Part shown: piece after piece, positions 1,258 to 43,931 of the stretch
How the letters are laid out: the number at the start of each line of letters is the position of its first letter
Numbering within the stretch: position 1 is the stretch's first letter
Assembly (NCBI GenBank): GCA_035464095.1
Contig: DATHSO010000080.1
Span: 4,024-68,023, forward strand
Length of the DNA: 64,000 bases
Reading direction: 5' to 3'
Source of the DNA: Candidatus Methylomirabilota bacterium
GTDB taxonomy: Bacteria; Acidobacteriota; Thermoanaerobaculia; Thermoanaerobaculales; Sulfomarinibacteraceae
The notes under the pieces: model-generated
Databases searched by the model: none
What the model saw: the letters and a program-made list of their open reading frames with translations, nothing else
What the model was told of the DNA's origin: nothing
Position numbers and translations under genes: made by a program

Positions 1258-4863
<3,606 letters not shown>

Positions 4864-7807: not shown

Positions 7808-9133
7808 ATGACCCGCGAAGCGATCGACACCTTCCGCCGACGGTTCCGAGACGCCTGGCAGCGATCGGACCGCATCTTCGACCTGGTGCCGAGGGAGCAC
7901 TGGCTGGACCAGCCCATCGAGCTGCGCCACCCGATCCTGTTCTACGTCGGCCACCTGCCGGCCTTCGCCTGGAACCAGGTCGGCCGCGGCCTGCTCGGGT
8001 GGGGCGCCCTCCACCCCGAGTTCGACGAGCTCTTCGAGCGGGGCATCGACCCCGTGGATGCCGACCGCCACGACGCCTCGGTCGAGTGGCCTTTGATCGA
8101 CGAGGTCCTGGCCTACCGCGACCGAGCCAGGGAGCGGCTCCTGGAGGCGGTCGAGGCGGTAGCGGCACGGGCGGGCGAGAATCCCCTCGCCGCCCGGGGG
8201 CGGATCCTCAACGTTGCCCTCGAGCACGAGCTCATGCACCAGGAGACCCTGCAGTACATGTTACTCCAGCTCGAGCCCGGGGTCCTGAGGCGGCCCGACG
8301 ACCTCGCGCCCTACCGATTCGGCGGCGAGGTCCAGGCCGAGACGGTGGCGGTCGACGGCGGCGAGGTCGTGCTCGGCGCCGACTTCGACGCCGTGGACTT
8401 CGGCTGGGACAACGAGTTCCCCGAGCACCGCGTCGCCGTGGACGGCTTCCGCATCGACCGCACCCCGGTCACCGTCGGCGCGTGGCTCGATTTCATCGAG
8501 GCCGGCGGCTACCGCCGGGCCGAGCTGTGGCTCGACGGCGACTGGCGCTGGCGGCAGCGGGTCGGTCTCGAGCACCCGCCGCGGTGGCGTCGGGACGACG
8601 GCGCCTGGCGCACCCGGACCCTCTTCGACACCCTGGAGCTCGAGCGGGTGCGCGCGTGGCCGGTGGCGGTGAGCCTGGCCGAGGCCCGGGCCTTCTGCCA
8701 CTGGCGCGGCGTCCGGCTGCCCACCGAGGCCGAGCTCCACCGCGCCATGTACGGGTCTCCCGAAGGGCCGCGGCGCCACCCCTGGGGCGACGACGGGCCC
8801 CGCCCGGGCATCCACGGCAACTTCGACTTCGCCAACTGGGCGCCGACGCCGGTGGCCGATCACCCCGCGGGCGAGTCGGCGTGGGGGCTCCTGGACACCG
8901 TGGGCAACCTCTGGGAGTGGACCTCGAGCCCCTTCGCGGGCTTTCCCGGCTTCGAGGTGACCGTGCCGAGCTACCCCGGCTACTCGGCGGACTTCTTCGA
9001 CGACCGGCACTTCGTCATGCTCGGCGCGTCGTGGGCGACGCCGGCGCCGCTCGTTCGGCGCAGCTTCCGCAACTGGTTCCAGGACCGCTACCCCTACGCC
9101 TTCGCCGGCTTCCGCACGGTCCACCCCCGCTGA
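7808..9133 (+). CDS. EgtB/OvoA-like sulfoxide synthase family protein (DinB-like N-domain + FGE-sulfatase C-domain)
   Basis: HPILFYVGHLPAF and HxxxHxE (EHELMHQE) in the N-terminal half; GNLWEWTSS-type FGE-sulfatase motif in the C-terminal half. Start placed at the ATG at 7808 behind GAGGAG; the ORF maximum starts at 7790. Confidence 0.65.
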   Translation: MTREAIDTFRRRFRDAWQRSDRIFDLVPREHWLDQPIELRHPILFYVGHLPAFAWNQVGRGLLGWGALHPEFDELFERGIDPVDADRHDASVEWPLIDEVLAYRDRARERLLEAVEAVAARAGENPLAARGRILNVALEHELMHQETLQYMLLQLEPGVLRRPDDLAPYRFGGEVQAETVAVDGGEVVLGADFDAVDFGWDNEFPEHRVAVDGFRIDRTPVTVGAWLDFIEAGGYRRAELWLDGDWRWRQRVGLEHPPRWRRDDGAWRTRTLFDTLELERVRAWPVAVSLAEARAFCHWRGVRLPTEAELHRAMYGSPEGPRRHPWGDDGPRPGIHGNFDFANWAPTPVADHPAGESAWGLLDTVGNLWEWTSSPFAGFPGFEVTVPSYPGYSADFFDDRHFVMLGASWATPAPLVRRSFRNWFQDRYPYAFAGFRTVHPR

Positions 9134-10133: not shown

Positions 10134-12437
10134 TCAGGCCTCCCGCTTCGCGGCGAAGAGCGCCGCCGTCTGGACCGGGTTGAGGGGGGTGCGGGTCACC
10201 CGCACACCGGTGGCGTCGTAGACCGCGTTGGCGATGGCGGGTGCGGTGGGAATGGTGACCGGCTCGCCGAGGCCTTTGGCCGAGGTGGCGTTGGCCTCGG
10301 TGTCCTCGAGGTCGATGGCGACCGAGGTCATGTCGGCCGGCACGTCCATGGCGGTGGGCATCTTGTAGTCGTGCAGGCTGATGTTGACCATCTTACCGGT
10401 CTGACCGGCATCGAGGATCCGTTCCTCCGTCATGGCGAAGCCGATGCCCATGGCGATGCCGCCGAAAACCTGGTTGTCGTAGGTGAGCCGGTTGAGCACC
10501 CGCCCGGAGTCGTGGGCGCCGAGGAAGCGAACCACACGGACCTCGCCGGTGCGGGTGTTGACCTCGACCTCGCAGAACTGAGCGGCGAAGGGGTTGACCA
10601 CTTTGCCCTCGGGGTTGGCGCCGCGGTAGCCGATGCCGACCACGACCCCGCGACGGCGCAGGCCCTCGATCTCGTCGAAGGCGAGCCCGTTGTCGGGTTC
10701 GTCCTCCTTGAACACCCGGCCGTCGCCGATGGTCAAGGTCTCGGGCTCGACGCCGAGCTGGTCGGCCGCGAGCCCCACCAACTGCTGCCGGACGCGGTAG
10801 GCCGCCTCCCGGACCGCCGGGCTCTCGGTGGGCACTGTCTTGGAGCCCCCCGACGGGGTCGCGTACTGGGTCGTCGAGGTGTCGGCATTCTCGATCTGGA
10901 TCTCGTCCGGCGGGACGTCGAGCTCCTCGGCGACGATCATCGCGGCCCAGGTCTTGGTGCCGGTGCCGATGTCGGATGCCCCCATGTTGAGGTTGACGGA
11001 GCCGTCCGAGAACATCTTCACGATGACGGTGGACGGCGGCCCGCCGCCGCCGGCGATCCAGGAGCAGGCGGCGACCCCGACACCCCGTTTGAGGTGGCCC
11101 GAGTCGGGTGTCTTCTTCTTCGCCTCGTCCCAGCCGAAAGCGTTTGCCCCCTCGACGAGGCACTCGCGCAGGCCGGTCGAGGTGTAGGGCTGGTTGCCGC
11201 GGGCCTGGCTGACGGTGGTGATGTTGGCGAGCCGGAGCTCGACCGGGTCCATGTCGATGGCCCGGGCGAGTGCGTCCATCATCTGCTCGAGGGCCCACGA
11301 GCCCTGGGGGTGGCCGGGGGCTCGGAACGGGCGCGACGGGCCGGCGTTGATGAACGCCCACTCGTTGCTGCAGCGGACGTTGTCGCAGGCGTAGAGGTCG
11401 CGGATCTGCCAGTCGTTGAGCCCGGCGCCGCCGCCGGGGTAGGCGCCGCCCGAGGTCACGCCGTGGAACTCCAGCGCGGTCAGCCTGCCGTCCTTGGTGA
11501 CGCCCGCTTTGAGCCTTATCGTGACGCCGGGGCGGTTGCCGGTGGCCAGCTGCTCCTCCTCGCGGCTGAGGAAGAGCTTGACTGGGCGAGCCGTCCGTTT
11601 GGCCAGTAGTGCCGCGACCACGGTGTGCTTGGAGGTGTTGAGCTTGGACCCGAAGCCTCCGCCCATGTAGGGGTTGCTGACCGTGACGTTGGCCAGGGGC
11701 AGACCGAGCACCGAGGCCAGCCGGGCCTGGGACGAGAAGACACCCTGCAGCGACTCCCACACCGTGAGCCGGTTGCCGTCCCAGCGGGCCACGGCCCCGT
11801 GCAGCTCCATGGGGTTGTGGACCTCGTAGGGGGTGGCATACTCCTCCTCCAGGACGACGTCCGCGGCCTCGAAGCCGGCCTCGACGTCGCCGCGGCTGTA
11901 GGTCTCGACCTCTCCTTGGCGATTGCCCCCCTCACGGGCCTTCGGTGCGCCCTCGGCCAGGGCGGCCTGGTGATCGGAGACGTGGGGCAGGACCTCATAC
12001 TCGACTTGGATCGCCTTGAGGGCGTCGCTTGCCTGGTGGGGAGTCTCGGCCGCAACCGCGGCCACCACCTCGCCCTCGAAGAGGCACTCCCGGACGAAGA
12101 TCGGCGAGCTCTCACCCTGGCCCCAGGGCCAGCTGAGCTGCGCTTCCGGGTCGGTGTCGGTGAGCACCGCCGCGACGCCGGGCATCTTCCGGGCGGCCTC
12201 CACGTCGAGCGAGGTGACGCGGGCGTGGGCGTGCGGACAGCGCAGGATCGCGCCGTAGAGCATGTCGGGCAGCACGATGTCAGACGGGTAGCGGGCGGCG
12301 CCGCTCACACGCTCGTAGGCGTCGACCCGCGGCCGGCGGGTGCCGACGATCTCGGTCGTCTTCCAGGAGCTCGGATACTCGCCGGGCTCGGGAGTCTCCG
12401 GCACCGGACCCTCGATGTAATAGGTCTCGTCGCTCAT
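10134..12437 (-). CDS. molybdenum hydroxylase, molybdopterin-binding large subunit
   Basis: ORF 10134..12794 trimmed to the ATG at 12437 (MSDETYYIEG), which overlaps the stop of the small-subunit gene (ATGA). Aldehyde oxidase/xanthine dehydrogenase a/b-hammerhead and Moco-binding sequence runs throughout. Confidence 0.85.
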   Translation of the reverse strand: MSDETYYIEGPVPETPEPGEYPSSWKTTEIVGTRRPRVDAYERVSGAARYPSDIVLPDMLYGAILRCPHAHARVTSLDVEAARKMPGVAAVLTDTDPEAQLSWPWGQGESSPIFVRECLFEGEVVAAVAAETPHQASDALKAIQVEYEVLPHVSDHQAALAEGAPKAREGGNRQGEVETYSRGDVEAGFEAADVVLEEEYATPYEVHNPMELHGAVARWDGNRLTVWESLQGVFSSQARLASVLGLPLANVTVSNPYMGGGFGSKLNTSKHTVVAALLAKRTARPVKLFLSREEEQLATGNRPGVTIRLKAGVTKDGRLTALEFHGVTSGGAYPGGGAGLNDWQIRDLYACDNVRCSNEWAFINAGPSRPFRAPGHPQGSWALEQMMDALARAIDMDPVELRLANITTVSQARGNQPYTSTGLRECLVEGANAFGWDEAKKKTPDSGHLKRGVGVAACSWIAGGGGPPSTVIVKMFSDGSVNLNMGASDIGTGTKTWAAMIVAEELDVPPDEIQIENADTSTTQYATPSGGSKTVPTESPAVREAAYRVRQQLVGLAADQLGVEPETLTIGDGRVFKEDEPDNGLAFDEIEGLRRRGVVVGIGYRGANPEGKVVNPFAAQFCEVEVNTRTGEVRVVRFLGAHDSGRVLNRLTYDNQVFGGIAMGIGFAMTEERILDAGQTGKMVNISLHDYKMPTAMDVPADMTSVAIDLEDTEANATSAKGLGEPVTIPTAPAIANAVYDATGVRVTRTPLNPVQTAALFAAKREA

Positions 12438-13407: not shown

Positions 13408-14160
13408 TCATCCCGCGCCTTCCCGGAGGCTGTCGACGATCCCGACCAGCTCGGCCGGGTGCTCGATCCGGTGGTTCGGCACGACCTTCCAGCCCGCGCC
13501 GTCGCTTCCATCCCCGAAGTGGGCCGCCACCGACAGCACCCGGAGCTCGCGTCCGAGGGCGACCAGGTCTCGGTTGGCGTTGGCCGCGCACAGGATGTCG
13601 GCCTCGTGGTCGCCGACGAAGAGCACGGTGGCGGGCTCGGTGACCCCGATATCGTCGATCGCGCGCAGCAGACCGTCCGGGGCCGGCTTCTGGCGGTGCA
13701 TGGGCACCTCGGCGTAGCCGATGATGACCGCGAAGTAGCGGTCGACCCGGGCCGCCCTGAGAGCCTGGGCGATGATCGCCCGGTCGTTCTGGGACACCAC
13801 CGCCTGGGCGAGGTCCTTGAAGTGCTCGAGGGTCGGCGCGACGCCGTCGAAAAGCGGCACCGGGGTCGGGTCGTTGAGCTGGTACGGGGCCCAGCGCGAG
13901 GCCGCCTGGGCGCACTGCTCGCGGGTCAGGCCGAGGGCCGAGACGTAGAGCTCCTGCCAGTTGCTGACCCGGTTCCAGGCGGCGTGGTACGCCTCCACCG
14001 AGCTCAGGGCCGAGACCTCCTGCCACGTACGGCCGGTCATCTCCTCGACGATCCTGCGGTTGACGCTGAGGTTGCGCAGGCTCGTGTCGGCCATCGTGCC
14101 GTCGAAGTCCCAGAGAATCGCCCGCAGCGGGTAGCTCGTCTGCACCGCGACATTATGCAC
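13408..14160 (-). CDS. HAD-superfamily hydrolase (phosphoglycolate phosphatase-like)
   Basis: DxDGT motif (LWDFDGTMADT) and VGDHEAD motif. The ORF maximum (to 14277) runs into a palindromic repeat, so the start is placed at the GTG at 14160. Start is uncertain. Confidence 0.6.
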   Translation of the reverse strand: MHNVAVQTSYPLRAILWDFDGTMADTSLRNLSVNRRIVEEMTGRTWQEVSALSSVEAYHAAWNRVSNWQELYVSALGLTREQCAQAASRWAPYQLNDPTPVPLFDGVAPTLEHFKDLAQAVVSQNDRAIIAQALRAARVDRYFAVIIGYAEVPMHRQKPAPDGLLRAIDDIGVTEPATVLFVGDHEADILCAANANRDLVALGRELRVLSVAAHFGDGSDGAGWKVVPNHRIEHPAELVGIVDSLREGAG

Positions 14161-14244
14161 GGCCCGGATGCGTCCCGGTGTGATGCCGGACCTTCTCGTA
14201 GCACGCGGCGCCACCGTCCCCAACTTGACGAACTCACCCGGAGC

Positions 14245-14332
14245 GTGCCAGGTACGGCGACTTGACAAACTCGCCACGAACCCTGTGAGTGCAGCATCAC
14301 TGCCGAGTTTGTCAAGTCGCGGTACCTGGCAC
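14245..14332. repeat. 88-bp palindromic element (GTGCCAGGTACGGCGACTTGACAAACT arms)
   Basis: 28-nt arms (27/28 complementary) around a 32-nt loop. The left arm is identical to that of the copy at 35276. A partial extra arm (caacttgacgaactc) lies at 14221-14235. Confidence 0.8.
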
Positions 14333-14341
14333 CGTGTGCTC

Positions 14342-16267
14342 TCACTCCACCCGGATCTCGAGGTCCGCGAGCTCGTCGACGGCTGACTCGAGCGCTGCGT
14401 CGAAGGCCTCCTCGGTGCCGATCCGCACCGGGGAGAACCGGTCGTCGAGGATCTCCCGAGCCTCGCGGCGCGAGACGTTCACCTCGAGCAGGTCGTCGTG
14501 AAGGCGGATCGAGGCCTCCTCGAGCAACCGGGCGGCGGCCTCGGCGAAAGGAGCGTCGGGGCCGGTCACCGATCCGAGGTGGGACCGCAGCACGGCTGCG
14601 ACGTCGCCCTTCAGAGCCTCCTGCAGCCGATCGCCGAGGCGCTCCATCTTCCGGTGAAGTGGCTCGAGCTCGGCTTGGAGTCGCTCCATGCGCTCGTGCT
14701 GCCGGGCCATGACCTCGTGGCTGCGCTCCATCCGCTCGTGGATGCGGGCGGTCTGCTCCTCGGTCAGCCGGGCAATCCGCTCGTGCAGCGGCCCGAGCTG
14801 CTCGTGGATCCTCTCGAGCTGCTCCCGGTAGGGGCTCATGTCGACGTGGACGGACTCGAGCTCGAGATGGAGGTTCTCCGTCTGCTCGTGGATCTGCCGC
14901 TTGATCTCCTCGAGCGTGCCGTCGTCGATGTGGAAGGTCATGGACTCGAGCCGCTCCTGCATCGCCTCCATGCGCTCCCGAAACGGCGCCATGTCCACTT
15001 CGATCCGTTCGATCTGCTCGAGGAAGGGCTTCATCTGGGCCTGGAGGCGTACGATGGCCTCGTGGTCGATCTCGGCCTCCATGGCCTCGATCTCCTCGAC
15101 GATCGGGGCCATCTCGATGTCGATCTCCCCGATCTTCTCGAGCTGAGGTTCGAGCCGCGCCTCGGCCTCCCGCATGTCGGCGACGGCTGATCGCAGCTCC
15201 GGGCTGGCGGTGCGCTCGGCGGCGGTCGGCTGCACGGCCGCGATGGCCGGGACGAGAGCGGCGGTGACGATGACGGCGGGGAGGATCAGCCGGAGGCCGA
15301 CCCGACGGTGGTGGTCGCGATTCAGGATGGTCATGATGCGTTCCTCCAGGTGCGAGCGCCGGGCCATGGAGAGGCCGGCGGAAGCGACGGCCGGGCGCGG
15401 CACGGCGGCGCGCGCTATGCCCAGCAGGTGGCAGGCGTAGGTCGAGGCCCGGGACCCCATGGACAGGACCTCCTCGTCGCAGGCGAGCTCCTGCTCCAGG
15501 TCGAGCCGGCGAACCGCCCACCAGGCGAGGGGGTTGAACCAGTAGACGGCGGCGGCGAGCCGGGCGGCGAGTCGCACGGGCCAGTCGTACCGGACGACGT
15601 GGACGAGCTCGTGCCGGAGCACCGCGGTGCGGCGGTCCTCGAGCCAGGTGTCGGCGTGGCTGGGCAGGATCACCACCGGCCGCAGCAGACCGAAGACGGC
15701 GGGCACGTCGACCTCCGGGCTGACGACCAGGCGGACCCGCCGGCGGCACCCGACCTCACGGCGGGCGGCGGCGAGCAGGTCGCGCCAACCCCGGTCGAGC
15801 ACCGGTCGGGCCCGCCCGACGACCCGGGTCATCCGCGACAGACCGACCCCGTGGTAAGCGGCGAGAATCAGCACTGCCCCGAGCCAGAAGAGGATACCCA
15901 CGAGCTCGAGGTCGACGGCGGACCACCAGGGAGCGGCGACGGGGATTCGGACCTCGAGGACCGGGGCCGGGGATGCCGCCGGCGAATGGGCAGGATCGGT
16001 GAGTTTCCGCGCGGGCGGCGAGGCCGACGACGAGCCACCGGTCTGAGTAGCGAGCTCGGCGAGAGCGGCCGGCAACGGAATCGAAACCGCCGGCACGACG
16101 GCCGCGACGAAGGGGACGAGCACGGCGCCGATCAGGGCGGTCGCCAACACCGCGGCTCGCAGCCGTGCGGGCCGCCGACGCATGGCGAGCGTGACGCCGA
16201 AGGCGGCCGCGAGGAGGAGACAGGCCTTCAGGCAGCCGAGGACGACACCGGCCACGGTGCTCATCAC
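14342..16267 (-). CDS. BlaR1/MecR1-like M56 peptidase signal transducer with atypical coiled-coil repeat sensor domain
   Basis: Multi-pass N-terminal domain with HELVH zinc motif. 4-nt overlap with the upstream BlaI-like gene. The C-terminal ~300 aa is E/R/M-rich with repeated (V/I)D(M)(A/S)P(F/Y/I)xE motifs instead of a penicillin-binding fold. Confidence 0.75.
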   Translation of the reverse strand: MMSTVAGVVLGCLKACLLLAAAFGVTLAMRRRPARLRAAVLATALIGAVLVPFVAAVVPAVSIPLPAALAELATQTGGSSSASPPARKLTDPAHSPAASPAPVLEVRIPVAAPWWSAVDLELVGILFWLGAVLILAAYHGVGLSRMTRVVGRARPVLDRGWRDLLAAARREVGCRRRVRLVVSPEVDVPAVFGLLRPVVILPSHADTWLEDRRTAVLRHELVHVVRYDWPVRLAARLAAAVYWFNPLAWWAVRRLDLEQELACDEEVLSMGSRASTYACHLLGIARAAVPRPAVASAGLSMARRSHLEERIMTILNRDHHRRVGLRLILPAVIVTAALVPAIAAVQPTAAERTASPELRSAVADMREAEARLEPQLEKIGEIDIEMAPIVEEIEAMEAEIDHEAIVRLQAQMKPFLEQIERIEVDMAPFRERMEAMQERLESMTFHIDDGTLEEIKRQIHEQTENLHLELESVHVDMSPYREQLERIHEQLGPLHERIARLTEEQTARIHERMERSHEVMARQHERMERLQAELEPLHRKMERLGDRLQEALKGDVAAVLRSHLGSVTGPDAPFAEAAARLLEEASIRLHDDLLEVNVSRREAREILDDRFSPVRIGTEEAFDAALESAVDELADLEIRVE

Positions 16268-23950: not shown

Positions 23951-24865
23951 ATGCGCGGTCTTCGTTTCACGGGTTCGATGGCAGCGGTGCTCGTTCTGGC
24001 CGCGGCGGCCGTCCGCGCCGCCGAGCCCCCGGTTCAGGCGACCGGGCGCTGGCAGGGCGACGGCGTCGAGTTCGCCATCGCGGGCGCCTACGCCTACCCG
24101 GCGCGGGTCGGCTCGGACGACCGTCCGGGGGTCCGGGTCGCGATCTCCAACGCCGAGTTCGTCACCGAGGGCATGAACCGCCTGTGGGACCGCCAGGGCT
24201 GGATCGTCCGCTCGTTCTCGGACGACCAGACGGCGGTGGTCTTCCTCCACTTCGACGACGCTGGCGGCTATGTCGGCATGAGCTACTCCTTCGGTCCCGG
24301 CACCGGCTGCGGCTTCTGCTTCTCCAGCGACACGAAGTCGTCGGTCAAGCGGGTCGGCGACCGGATCGCCGGCTCGCTGTCCCACAAGGACGACGAGCTC
24401 GTTTTCGAGGTCAGCTTCGACGTGCCCGTCGCACCCACTGTCTGGGGCGAGCCCCTGCCGGCCGACGGCGGCGAGCCGGGCAAGGCCTACCTCGCCTACC
24501 TGCGGGCCCTCGACGACTGGGATCCGGAGGCGCTGCGTCCGCACCTGATGCCCGAGGACCAGGAGCGCGCCGACCAGGCGGCCGCAGAGGACCTCAACGT
24601 CGCCCAGATCTACGCCGAGTCCTTCTACCCCCAGAAGGCGCGTTTCGTTGGCGGCTCCCACGACGGCGACTGGGCGCGGGTGCTCGTGGTCGGCGAGTCG
24701 TCGTGGGGCGGTGCGGCCCACGGCGAAGCGATCATGCATCGCGTCGACGGCAGCTGGCGGATGTGGCTCGACCAGGCCGAGGTCGGCGAGTGGCCGGAGC
24801 ACCTGGCGCCGCCGGCGGCCGGCGCCGGAGCCGCGGCGGCGCCCGACCAGGGCCCGGTTGAATGA
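23951..24865 (+). CDS. secreted hypothetical protein
   Basis: ORF trimmed to the ATG at 23951 behind GGAGGA. Signal peptide MRGLRFTGSMAAVLVLAAAAVRAAEP. No recognisable family. Confidence 0.6.
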   Translation: MRGLRFTGSMAAVLVLAAAAVRAAEPPVQATGRWQGDGVEFAIAGAYAYPARVGSDDRPGVRVAISNAEFVTEGMNRLWDRQGWIVRSFSDDQTAVVFLHFDDAGGYVGMSYSFGPGTGCGFCFSSDTKSSVKRVGDRIAGSLSHKDDELVFEVSFDVPVAPTVWGEPLPADGGEPGKAYLAYLRALDDWDPEALRPHLMPEDQERADQAAAEDLNVAQIYAESFYPQKARFVGGSHDGDWARVLVVGESSWGGAAHGEAIMHRVDGSWRMWLDQAEVGEWPEHLAPPAAGAGAAAAPDQGPVE

Positions 24866-27011: not shown

Positions 27012-27165
27012 CTACGGTGTCGAGCCCGACCAGCCGGAGAGATTCCCCGACTCGAAGCCGTCGGTGAAGACGGTGTCGGCGGTGGGCGGGCAGGGGAGCC
27101 CGACGGAGCGGACGACGTCGAAGCTGTCGCCCTCGAGGCTGGCGCCGCCCGAGGCGAGGTCGAAG
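27012..27165 (-). pseudogene. coding-like frame without start codon (possible gene remnant, ...DTVFTDGFESGNLSGWSGSTP*)
   Basis: About 50 codons with almost every third position G/C, ending at TAG 27014-27012. No ATG, GTG or TTG in frame. Confidence 0.3.
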
Positions 27166-27195
27166 GCGAGCCCTACAAGGAGCGAGCCCTGCGGG

Positions 27196-27918
27196 CTACT
27201 TCTTCGCGGCGAGGCCGGCGACGAGCAGCATGCTCTGCGGGTCGAGGACGATGTTGAGGTCCTTGGCGACCATCTCCTGGCGGTCCTTGAGGACGTGGAG
27301 CCGGATCTTGGCGTCGCTGGGGACGAGGCCGAAGGCCAGGTCGACCTCGTCCTCGAAGGTGTCGGCCGGCGGCGGCAGGTGGCCGGGCGCCGGGGGCTCG
27401 TGGCGGTGGGTGCGGCAGGCCATCCAGAGCTCGGCGCCGATCTCGCCGGCCAGGGCCTTGAGCTCGGTGATGGCCGGCACGTCGAGCTCGGTGTACTCCA
27501 TCCGGTCGAGGATGATGACCCCGGGCACGAACTCCATGGCGTCGTGCAGCAGGGCGACGGTCTGCCGGACGCGCTCCACCGAGAAGCTCTGGCCGACGAA
27601 GGTGTGGATGTGGCGGTTGCGCTCCATGAGCAGCTGGAGGGCGCTCAGGTGCTCGAGCTTCTTGTGGATCCTCAGCATCTCCACCAGGCTCTCGTCGTAC
27701 CACTCGCGGACCTTGTCGATGGAGCGCTCGATGGAGACGTGGAGGACCCTCTGGCCCGCGAGCAGGGCATCGACACCGATGGCGGTCAGAAACGCGGTCT
27801 TGCCGACGCCGGCGCGCGCCATCACCAGGGCGAGGCGGCCGGGCCCCGGGCCGGGGTGGCCGTCGCGGGCCAGCAGGGTGCGCGGGGAACGACGCAGGGA
27901 GATCATCAGCTCGGTCAT
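27196..27918 (-). CDS. stand-alone RecA-fold P-loop ATPase resembling the DnaB C-terminal / KaiC domain
   Basis: Walker [13 protein letters not shown] followed by VLHVSIERS; Walker B VIILDRM. ATG overlaps the EF-G stop (ATGA). Confidence 0.65.
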
Positions 27919-30163: not shown

Positions 30164-30238
30164 TTCCGCCCTGGAGAGTCGTTTCCGGACATCTCGTGGG
30201 GGAGCCGAATCAGACCGGCTCGGTGTGGTGGGCGCGGA

Positions 30239-30406
30239 TCATCCCTCAGAAGCCGGGCTGGGGAGATCCTGGAGCTCGGTGGGGGAGGGCTCGTCGTCGC
30301 CGTTCTCCTTGCTTTGGCGCCGCTCCATCTTTTCGACGCGCTTCTTCTGCTTCTTGAGTTCCTTCTGGCGCTTCTCGAACTTGTACGAGCCGGTTTTTCG
30401 TCCCAC
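30239..30406 (-). CDS. small lysine-rich protein (55 aa, GTG start), absent from the ORF track
   Basis: GGAGG lies 5 nt before the GTG at 30406. Translation (M)GRKTGSYKFEKRQKELKKQKKRVEKMERRQSKENGDDEPSPTELQDLPSPASEG. High third-position G/C. The competing 89-aa track ORF is Arg-rich and shadow-like. Confidence 0.4.
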   Translation of the reverse strand: MGRKTGSYKFEKRQKELKKQKKRVEKMERRQSKENGDDEPSPTELQDLPSPASEG

Positions 30407-31120: not shown

Positions 31121-33246
<2,126 letters not shown>

Positions 33247-35223: not shown

Positions 35224-35251
35224 GGACGCGAGAATACCAGATGACCCCCCT

Positions 35252-35396
35252 CCACTTGACAAACTCTTCCACAGCGTGCCAGGTACGGCGACTTGACAAA
35301 CTGAGCATGGACGCAGCGGCAACAGGCGGCGCGGGGAGTTTGTCAAGTTGCCGTACCTGGCACCGTCAGGGGGGAGTTCGTCAAGTCGCGGTGGTG
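35252..35396. repeat. 88-bp palindromic element (35276-35363) nested between partial arms of a second copy
   Basis: Inner arms gtgccaggtacggcgacttgacaaact / agtttgtcaagttgccgtacctggcac (26/27) around a 34-nt loop. Outer half-arms ccacttgacaaactc (35252-66) and gagttcgtcaagtcgcggtgg (35374-94). Confidence 0.8.
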
Positions 35397-35415
35397 TGCC
35401 GCGGGGTCCGGGGTG

Positions 35416-35763
35416 TCAGCTCGGGATGACGGCGTTGCGGTGGTCGACGAGGACGATGGTGGGCCGGTGGCCGGCGCCCTCGGTCTCGTCGACGATCCCG
35501 TAGCAGGCGATGATGACGACGTCGCCGGGCTGGACGAGCCGGGCGGCGGCGCCGTTGACGCAGATCTCGCCCTCACCGCCGAGGATGACGTAGGTGGCGA
35601 AGCGGGCGCCGGTGGTGCAGCTGTAGACCTCGACCCGCTCGAACTCGTGGATGCCGGCGGCGCGGCACAGCTCGCGGTCGACGGTGATGGAGCCCTCGTA
35701 GGCGAGGTTGGCGTCGGTCACCGTGGCGCGGTGGATCTTGGACTTGAGGACGGTGATCTGCAT
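35416..35763 (-). CDS. panD: aspartate 1-decarboxylase
   Basis: [29 protein letters not shown] with the GS self-processing site. Confidence 0.92.
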
Positions 35764-43232: not shown

Positions 43233-43885
43233 GGCCGTGCGTCCCGGGGCACCGGCCTTCTGGGCCGCCTTTGGCGTCCCAGCGTCGATGAGCCGGCGCG
43301 GTCGCGCGGAGGAGACGGGGAAAGCTGCGACCGCGCCGTCTCATCGAGCGGCGGCCTGCCTCGTTGCCGGAAAGGGAGCTTCCCGAGACGCGATGGGAGC
43401 GGTGCCAGGCACCCTTTCGTCGGACGAAAGGAGAGCCAGGCACCGGGCCCGCGCTGTCTCGAGGCGAAGGATGCCGGCACAATGGCGTACCCGGCACGTC
43501 CCGGTGGAGGCGCCCCACCCGCGCCTCCCGGAGGCGCGCTGATCGCTGCCGCTGACCCTGCCGCTGCCGCTGCCGCTGGGCGCGTGGCCGTGCGTCCCGG
43601 AGCACCGGCCTTCTGGGCCGCCTTTGGCGTCCCAGCGTCGATGAGCCGGCGCGGTCGCGCGAAGGTGGCGGGGAGGGCTGCGACCGCGCCGTCGTGGCGA
43701 GCGGCGGCCTCCCCCGTTGCGGGAGCGGATGCTCCGGAGCGCGCTTCCCGTGGATTGCCAGGTGCGGCATTGTGCGGAGCGCGCTCTGCTCGGGAGGGTG
43801 GAGCCGGCACAATGCCGAACCTGGCACGTCCCGGGGGAGGCGCACTGCCCGCGCGTTCCGGAGGCGCGGTTCGCTGCCGCTGACA
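43233..43885. repeat. two tandem ~350-bp composite repeat units rich in hairpins
   Basis: Units start at 43233 and 43586. The first ~77 nt have one mismatch. Each contains ggcgcggtcgc...gcgaccgcgcc (11-bp stem), a GCCAGGT...ACCTGGCAC-type palindrome (43756-43827 in unit 2), and ends with (GCTGCC)n hexamers. Confidence 0.75.
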
Positions 43886-43931
43886 TCGGACACGGACGCG
43901 GAAGTGGGCGAAGACGAGGTAGAATCACGGG

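Follow-up and report, generated by a model that had tools for sequence, protein, structure and literature searches.

Why does a long palindrome lie between the genes for a HAD-family hydrolase and a BlaR1-like peptidase M56, and is it a signal serving these genes or a mobile sequence in its own right? The question is raised by positions 14221-14332 of the window, by which we mean the whole 64,000-nt stretch of DNA analysed, part of contig C80 of the genome here called G000. The locus is composed of the following features.

13408-14145, minus strand: HAD-family hydrolase gene, with a likely true start at GTG 14145 or 14160
14223-14235, plus strand: outer head-less box A, ACTTGACGAACTC, 37 nt upstream of the inner box A
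14236-14244, unstranded: linker acccggagc, 9 nt, from the outer box to the left unit, semi-conserved in the family
14245-14272, plus strand: left 28-nt unit, composed of head GTGCCAGGTAC, GGCG and box A ACTTGACAAACTC; exact family master sequence
14273-14304, unstranded: loop of 32 nt, whose length is kept in the family and whose sequence is poorly conserved
14305-14332, minus strand: right 28-nt unit, inverted, differing from the master sequence at 1 position (CGCG in place of GGCG)
14342-16267, minus strand: BlaR1-like peptidase M56 gene, whose stop codon is 9 nt from the right unit

The two inverted 28-nt arms share the layout GTGCCAGGTAC-GGCG-ACTTGACAAACTC and are complementary at 27 of 28 positions around the 32-nt loop, as the original prediction had it. 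Its further claims of an additional half-arm just outside and of a TTGACA hexamer on the own strand of each arm hold as well: the half-arm is the ACTTGACGAACTC box, and the hexamers are present in both arms, from which they point into the variable loop. A repeat finder delimits inverted arms at 14245-14276 and 14301-14332 (32 nt each, 94% complementary); the conserved unit was set at 28 nt per side by comparison with other copies of the family, whose heads are preceded by a conserved A at -3 and C at -6. Folded as single-stranded DNA, the element reaches -43.2 kcal/mol (z = -9.1 versus shuffles). The window contains 7 matches to GTGCCAGGTAC with at most 1 mismatch (0.54 expected) and 7 to ACTTGACAAACTC with at most 2 mismatches (0.23 expected). 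An Rfam search of the window identified tRNA only and no known RNA family at the palindrome.

The element lies 62-77 nt before the likely HAD start. The ORF annotated at 13408-14277 (minus strand) begins with VASLSSRRTWHA... inside the element. Its HAD domain starts only at residue 52-54 (HAD_2 from residue 54), and GTG 14160 or 14145 is a plausible genuine start, a reading that also draws on the HAD of a congener; the repeat has thus created a spurious N-terminal extension, in agreement with what had been proposed from the sequence. The suggestion that the TTGACA hexamers could act as promoters is not supported: a scan of 14050-14450 detected no sigma-70-type promoter and no -10 box at 16-18 nt from TTGACA. 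The same interval has no intrinsic terminator composed of a GC-rich hairpin and a T run. By analogy with REPs, a role as a hairpin at the 3' end of the M56 transcript is possible.

The element is one of many. The family has a second copy at 35254-35386 of the window, which carries an outer box A at either end (unstranded; fold of -46.8 kcal/mol, z = -6.1):

35254-35266: outer box A
35276-35303: left unit
35304-35335: loop, 32 nt
35336-35363: right unit
35374-35386: outer box A

The genome-wide census proposed in the original prediction covered the 4.42-Mb assembly of G000 (217 contigs, 70.9% GC, 90% complete), a metagenome-assembled genome that the names of its relatives assign to Acidobacteriota, class Thermoanaerobaculia. 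Searched with up to 3 mismatches, the 28-mer has 66 units, 35 forward and 31 reverse, and the reversed control has 0; 41 of the 66 are exact copies of the master sequence. The units are distributed over 37 loci, every one of them intergenic, which face 36 gene 5' ends versus 21 gene 3' ends in convergent, tandem and divergent settings. Their architecture is stereotyped, with boxes at offsets 0/22/37/82/99/120, and a central hairpin is present at 24 loci, 22 of which have a loop of 32 nt. At least 11 contigs end inside a copy of the family, which thus explains the recurrent sequence that breaks the G000 assembly as well as false ORF extensions like that of the HAD gene. Among 401 sampled genomes of the class the family is amplified in G000 only; four congeners have 1-2 copies.

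Pairwise identity across 19 complete doublets is 96% in the arms and 53% in the loops (shuffled null, 33%), with the loop length fixed. If the loops diverged neutrally by about 47%, near-identical arms would need selection, conversion or turnover. The loops display a slight excess of symmetry (5.95 versus 4.47 pairs) and a loop-only fold energy equal to that of shuffles; the reading of loops as conserved secondary hairpins was rejected on these grounds.

The outer box A copies form a recurrent feature of their own. Genome-wide, 35 outer units lie 6-11 nt beyond another unit, in direct orientation and with a period of 37-38 nt. Twelve of them have their own head, and 20 have none: in the latter, box A carries 0.55 mismatches per 13 nt and the upstream 15 nt are 37% head-like. 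Nesting of one copy in the loop of another was discarded as their origin, the linkers adding up to 17-20 nt instead of 32 and no remnant of a head being seen at the 20 outer boxes. One possibility is that mobile units frequently begin with box A; the other is that box A has a use of its own and is retained for it, which would fit the idea of its binding by the DnaA-like domain of the transposase described next.

The RAYT/IS200-like transposase with matching ends envisaged by the original prediction is found in relatives: a REP-associated tyrosine transposase is bracketed by the repeat in three congeners and in two metagenome contigs. In congeners G001, G009 and G010 the 28-mer occurs exactly twice, inverted and about 1.05 kb apart at a syntenic locus, with 0-3 mismatches in the flanking copies and a bracketed interior of 1048-1053 nt. 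The inverted pair encloses one ORF, coding for the 335-amino-acid protein P0001; bracketed transposases of congeners and metagenome contigs are 330-342 amino acids long. P0001 scores 93 bits on the NCBIfam family NF047646 'REP-associated tyrosine transposase' (cut-off 80) and matches Pfam Y1_Tnp. A sequence search of solved structures gives E. coli TnpA-REP (PDB 4ER8) as its sole relative, and the NHYH and YIHLNP motifs are invariant among the transposase relatives. The public metagenome contigs L116 and L117 encode homologues with 67-70% identity, bracketed by the same repeat, GTGCCAGGTACGGC.A..TGAT.AAA. In the gene-carrying unit as in the window element, heads point outward and tails, the part with box A, inward. 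The three congener loci have 58-60% GC versus 71% for the whole of G000, though the genus is the same.

Structure prediction led to assignments for both halves of the protein. The AlphaFold model of P0001, built from 62 relatives, has a mean pLDDT of 85. Its N-terminal domain best matches 4ER8, the structure of TnpA-REP on a REP hairpin (E = 7e-8), followed by the transposases of ISDra2 and IS608. The C-terminal domain superimposes on the DNA-binding domain of DnaA (3PVP, TM 0.91 and rmsd 1.4 A; 1J1V, TM 0.87), and the Pfam match for this DnaA_C-like domain is weak (E = 0.003, below cut-off). On the evidence of the model, the P0001-type protein is a predicted HUH/Y1 nuclease domain joined to a DnaA-domain-IV-like DNA-binding domain.

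G000 itself codes for two intact paralogous transposases, plus fragments, bracketed by the same kind of repeat with other tails; the flanking head is GTGCCAGG for one paralogue and GGTACCACG for the other. The paralogue on C191 lies between repeats of GGTACCACGTATCACATTGTGATGTT, a sequence present in 3 copies genome-wide. The second, flanked by GGTGCCAGGCACGCCATACCGCCTTA (about 8 copies), lies partly at the end of C53 and partly at the start of C168; a 141-nt overlap between the two contigs shows it to be a single gene. No transposase bracketed by the exact 28-mer was found in the 90%-complete assembly by tblastn, in the syntenic slot or at contig ends, and the slot corresponding to the congeners' gene (C117:4908 to C117:11475) holds other genes. 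Since the bin contains no contig below 1.7 kb and many related public genes lie on isolated contigs of about 1.1 kb, the cognate gene may have been left out of the bin; it may also have been lost. The G000 family may thus be orphaned, or it may be mobilised by a paralogue.

The 42-kb contig C140 contains transposase fragments at 8981-9067, 11651-12153 and 24093-24305, at most 83% identical to the C53/C168 gene, together with repeat loci at 27151-27222, 30167-30277 and 32985-33110. The contig gives the impression of a place where decayed units have gathered.

We privilege the hypothesis that the element is a non-autonomous RAYT/TIRYT derivative, a REPIN-like doublet or TIR dimer of the TIRYT / TnpA-REP subclass 2.1 kind, and consider this very probable. 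The same 28-mers bracket the transposase gene with heads out and tails in, so that the element amounts to a transposase unit whose gene of about 1.05 kb is replaced by 32 nt. Origin of the doublet by deletion is suggested by this topology alone, local alignments of the loop with the interior of the transposase unit being no better than shuffles. In the single-stranded DNA of a replication fork, the arms would pair into a hairpin of about 28-32 bp. By analogy with E. coli TnpA-REP and the TnpA of IS200/IS605, a transposase acting in trans would be expected to recognise and cut this hairpin, and the doublet would thereby be copied to new intergenic sites.

A different history would make the copies immobile leftovers of a family spread by a transposase since lost, possibly kept for host use. 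The assembly without a cognate gene, the occupation of the syntenic slot by other genes, the fragments on C140 and the strong divergence of the loops all speak for such an orphan relic. However, exact sequence in 41 of the 66 units and arms of 96% identity are hard to square with long decay, and the gene may be missing from an assembly that is just 90% complete with a smallest contig of 1.7 kb, given that binning would drop the isolated contigs of about 1.1 kb on which many related transposase genes lie and that at least 11 contigs end inside elements. We regard the relic as rather unlikely. Far less credible is a host regulatory element, in which the arms would be operator or promoter modules, with TTGACA as -35 box, controlling the HAD gene and other downstream genes. 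Its attraction lies in the hexamer of each arm, in the bias of the loci toward gene 5' ends (36 versus 21 3' ends) and in the conservation of box A even without a head. Yet 14050-14450 has no promoter and no -10 box at 16-18 nt, both hexamers point into the variable loop, some copies lie between convergent genes, the neighbouring genes are mutually unrelated, and in congeners this very sequence delimits a transposase gene.

We give least credence of all to an ordinary MITE of a cut-and-paste DDE transposon, which would account for terminal inverted repeats, small size, many copies and intergenic location, but not for the absence of a target-site duplication: the bases outside the heads are inverted complements (GACG...CGTC), and the sole gene found between such ends codes for a Y1/HUH transposase. 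A CRISPR-like reading was also considered. The sizes of a 28-nt repeat and a 32-nt spacer fit it, but scattered repeats in inverted orientation, linked to a transposase, do not, and it was rejected.

The derivative of a RAYT/TIRYT unit, our preferred reading, resembles several known systems. As in REPIN-RAYT systems, two inverted units form a hairpin, extragenic copies number in the dozens, units are highly conserved with a less conserved spacer of constant length, and the unit borders a HUH/Y1 transposase gene present once per genome, here in the congeners. In REPINs, likewise, it is the repeats that are conserved, and of the spacer mainly the length (Bertels & Rainey 2011, PMC3116915). The predicted N-terminal domain has the same fold as E. 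coli TnpA-REP (PDB 4ER8). Unlike in REPINs, the unit is a 28-mer that is not palindromic and has a GTGCCAGG head, where REPINs have a hairpin tagged with GTAG; the transposase has double the length and a DnaA-domain-IV-like domain; and the host is an acidobacterium, not a proteobacterium, in whose G000 assembly the cognate gene was not found. A classical GTAG/CGTC-tagged REP was discarded as an identity for the 28-mer, which is not self-complementary and has no GTAG or CGTC tag.

The TIRtron/TIRYT class comes closer, with a RAYT-like gene and non-palindromic terminal inverted repeats; an Acidobacteria-specific group and dimeric TIR repeats have already been noted in it (Di Nocera et al. 2013, PMC3733652). 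The class has been equated with TnpA-REP subclass 2.1, which has a Bac_DnaA_C-like domain (Quentin et al. 2018, PMC6006769). Shared with it are the RAYT-like gene, the non-palindromic terminal inverted repeats, the C-terminal helix-turn-helix related to Bac_DnaA_C, and the dispersal of repeats as singles, dimers and groups. The published consensus is GGGGWSAS, in contrast with GGTGCCAGG in the acidobacterial clade; G-rich heads are confined to the non-acidobacterial relatives L045, L047 and L050. TIRYTs were judged poorly productive, and subclass 2.1 to be without nearby REP-like repeats (PMC3733652, PMC6006769); G000, on the contrary, has 66 units in one family and at least 8 families with one head, an amplification well beyond that described for the class. 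REPIN-like amplification is thereby extended to Thermoanaerobaculia, for which we found no paper on such repeats, and to the long DnaA-domain-bearing transposases (TIRYT / subclass 2.1), for whose proteins such repeats were previously thought rare or unproductive.

IS200/IS605 elements such as IS608 and ISDra2 have a related catalytic fold and motifs and provide, with single-strand 'peel and paste', the model for movement. Unlike here, they have subterminal hairpins at unlike ends and spread as whole gene-carrying copies; in the present system the gene is single-copy and only the ends multiply. An IS200/IS605 copy was rejected as the identity of the window element.

The original prediction had also placed the element in one superfamily with two palindromes near metH on account of their equal termini. 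We find that these metH palindromes run GGTGCC(A/G)GGT...ACCTGGCACC end to end and that the relationship extends well beyond them. Three further elements of the window belong here:

2097-2162, unstranded: metH palindrome of a sister family, with head GGTGCC(A/G)GGT and a different tail, CAGACGATCTTGACGATTC
2967-3032, unstranded: another metH palindrome from the same sister family; its head is GGTGCCAGGT, its tail CAGACGATTCAGACGATTT
43402-43497, unstranded: third GTGCCAGG-headed family, with 23 genome copies and unlike left and right arms

Inverted repeats were sought around the transposase gene in about 27 acidobacterial relatives. Most have repeats of 21-33 nt starting with (G)GTGCCAGG or a one-base variant, and a few start with GTGCCACG. 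The tails behind the head are lineage-specific, AT-richer, mutually unrelated and often a 9-nt direct duplication; pairwise identity over 26 loci is 89% in the head and 35% in the tail. G000 itself has at least 8 repeat families with the GTGCCAGG head (59, 28, 23, 15, 7, 4, 7 and 3 units). The superfamily thus stands, carried by these families and by most related transposase genes, and its basis, as far as sequence comparison can tell, is that all the repeats are ends recognised by one transposase clade. One conserved head with at least 8 tails in one genome offers natural material on how enzymes choose DNA.

This division of the repeats suggests how recognition could be shared within the protein. 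The clade-wide GTGCCAGG head would be the likely nuclease recognition or cleavage part, and the lineage-specific, AT-richer tail (box A with TTGACA) the likely specificity part, box A possibly being bound as a duplex by the C-terminal DnaA-domain-IV-like domain. We put forward tentatively, as a possibility short of an even chance, that the repeat is a two-part address, with the HUH domain reading the GGTGCCAGG head and the DnaA-domain-IV-like domain reading the tail as duplex. If true, this would explain both the intact head-less box A beside 20 elements and the many sister tails that are 9-nt direct duplications, and would answer the question raised by Quentin et al. 2018 of what the DnaA-like domain binds in subclass 2.1. 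On its other strand, box A contains the 9-mer TTGTCAAGT in G000 and TTATCAAGT in the congeners; it agrees with the DnaA box TT(A/G)TCCACA at 6 of 9 positions, a match about as likely as not by chance and not significant alone. At face value, tail similarity and C-terminal-domain identity are weakly correlated (rho 0.23; partial 0.18).

The 23-copy family has further peculiarities. In the window interval 43300-43900 a degenerate second copy lies at about 43760-43827. A middle of about 42 nt is conserved in the family and so are the flanks, from which the real unit appears to be larger, about 250-350 nt, and in tandem in the window. Its inner hairpin occurs as two paired variants, CCCTTTCG..CGAAAGG and CCTTTTCG..CGAAAAG, a two-sided change that keeps the pairing.

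Short tandem repeats with a period of 11-16 nt, such as (GAAAGGTGCCAA)n and (TCGGACGGTGCC)n, take up the opening bases of the head. They are found at C53:14240-14280, C140:30110-30170 and C136:2375-2415 of G000 and at L002:1520-1550, the latter in the transposase locus of G001. Such repeats adjoin several elements, and two transposase units, on their outer side, which gives the impression of an end copied again and again.

Syntenic sites in congeners were compared at five loci for traces of insertion, and none gave a clean empty site: the flanking genes are non-adjacent at four (window 14146-14341 and 35224-35426; G000:C215:31916-32052; G000:C117:1868-2007), and an unrelated palindrome is present at the fifth. 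At the locus that opened this analysis, the interval from the HAD to the M56 gene is 1.3-3.5 kb longer in all 11 congeners; from sequence, their extra DNA is read as including a putative YcaQ-like gene. At the fifth locus, on C153, G006 and G002 have the two flanking genes side by side and flanks that can be aligned, and the array of the 28-mer family (family 1) is present in G000 only, as would be expected of a lineage-specific insertion. At this same site (G000:C153:3848-3993) the congeners carry the unrelated palindrome, which has TGAGGAG/TTAGGAG heptamers and their complement (CTCCTCA), in the loci G006:C15:82780-83060 (L123) and G002:C64:8090-8380 (L124). Palindromic elements of different kinds seem to have settled at the C153 site.
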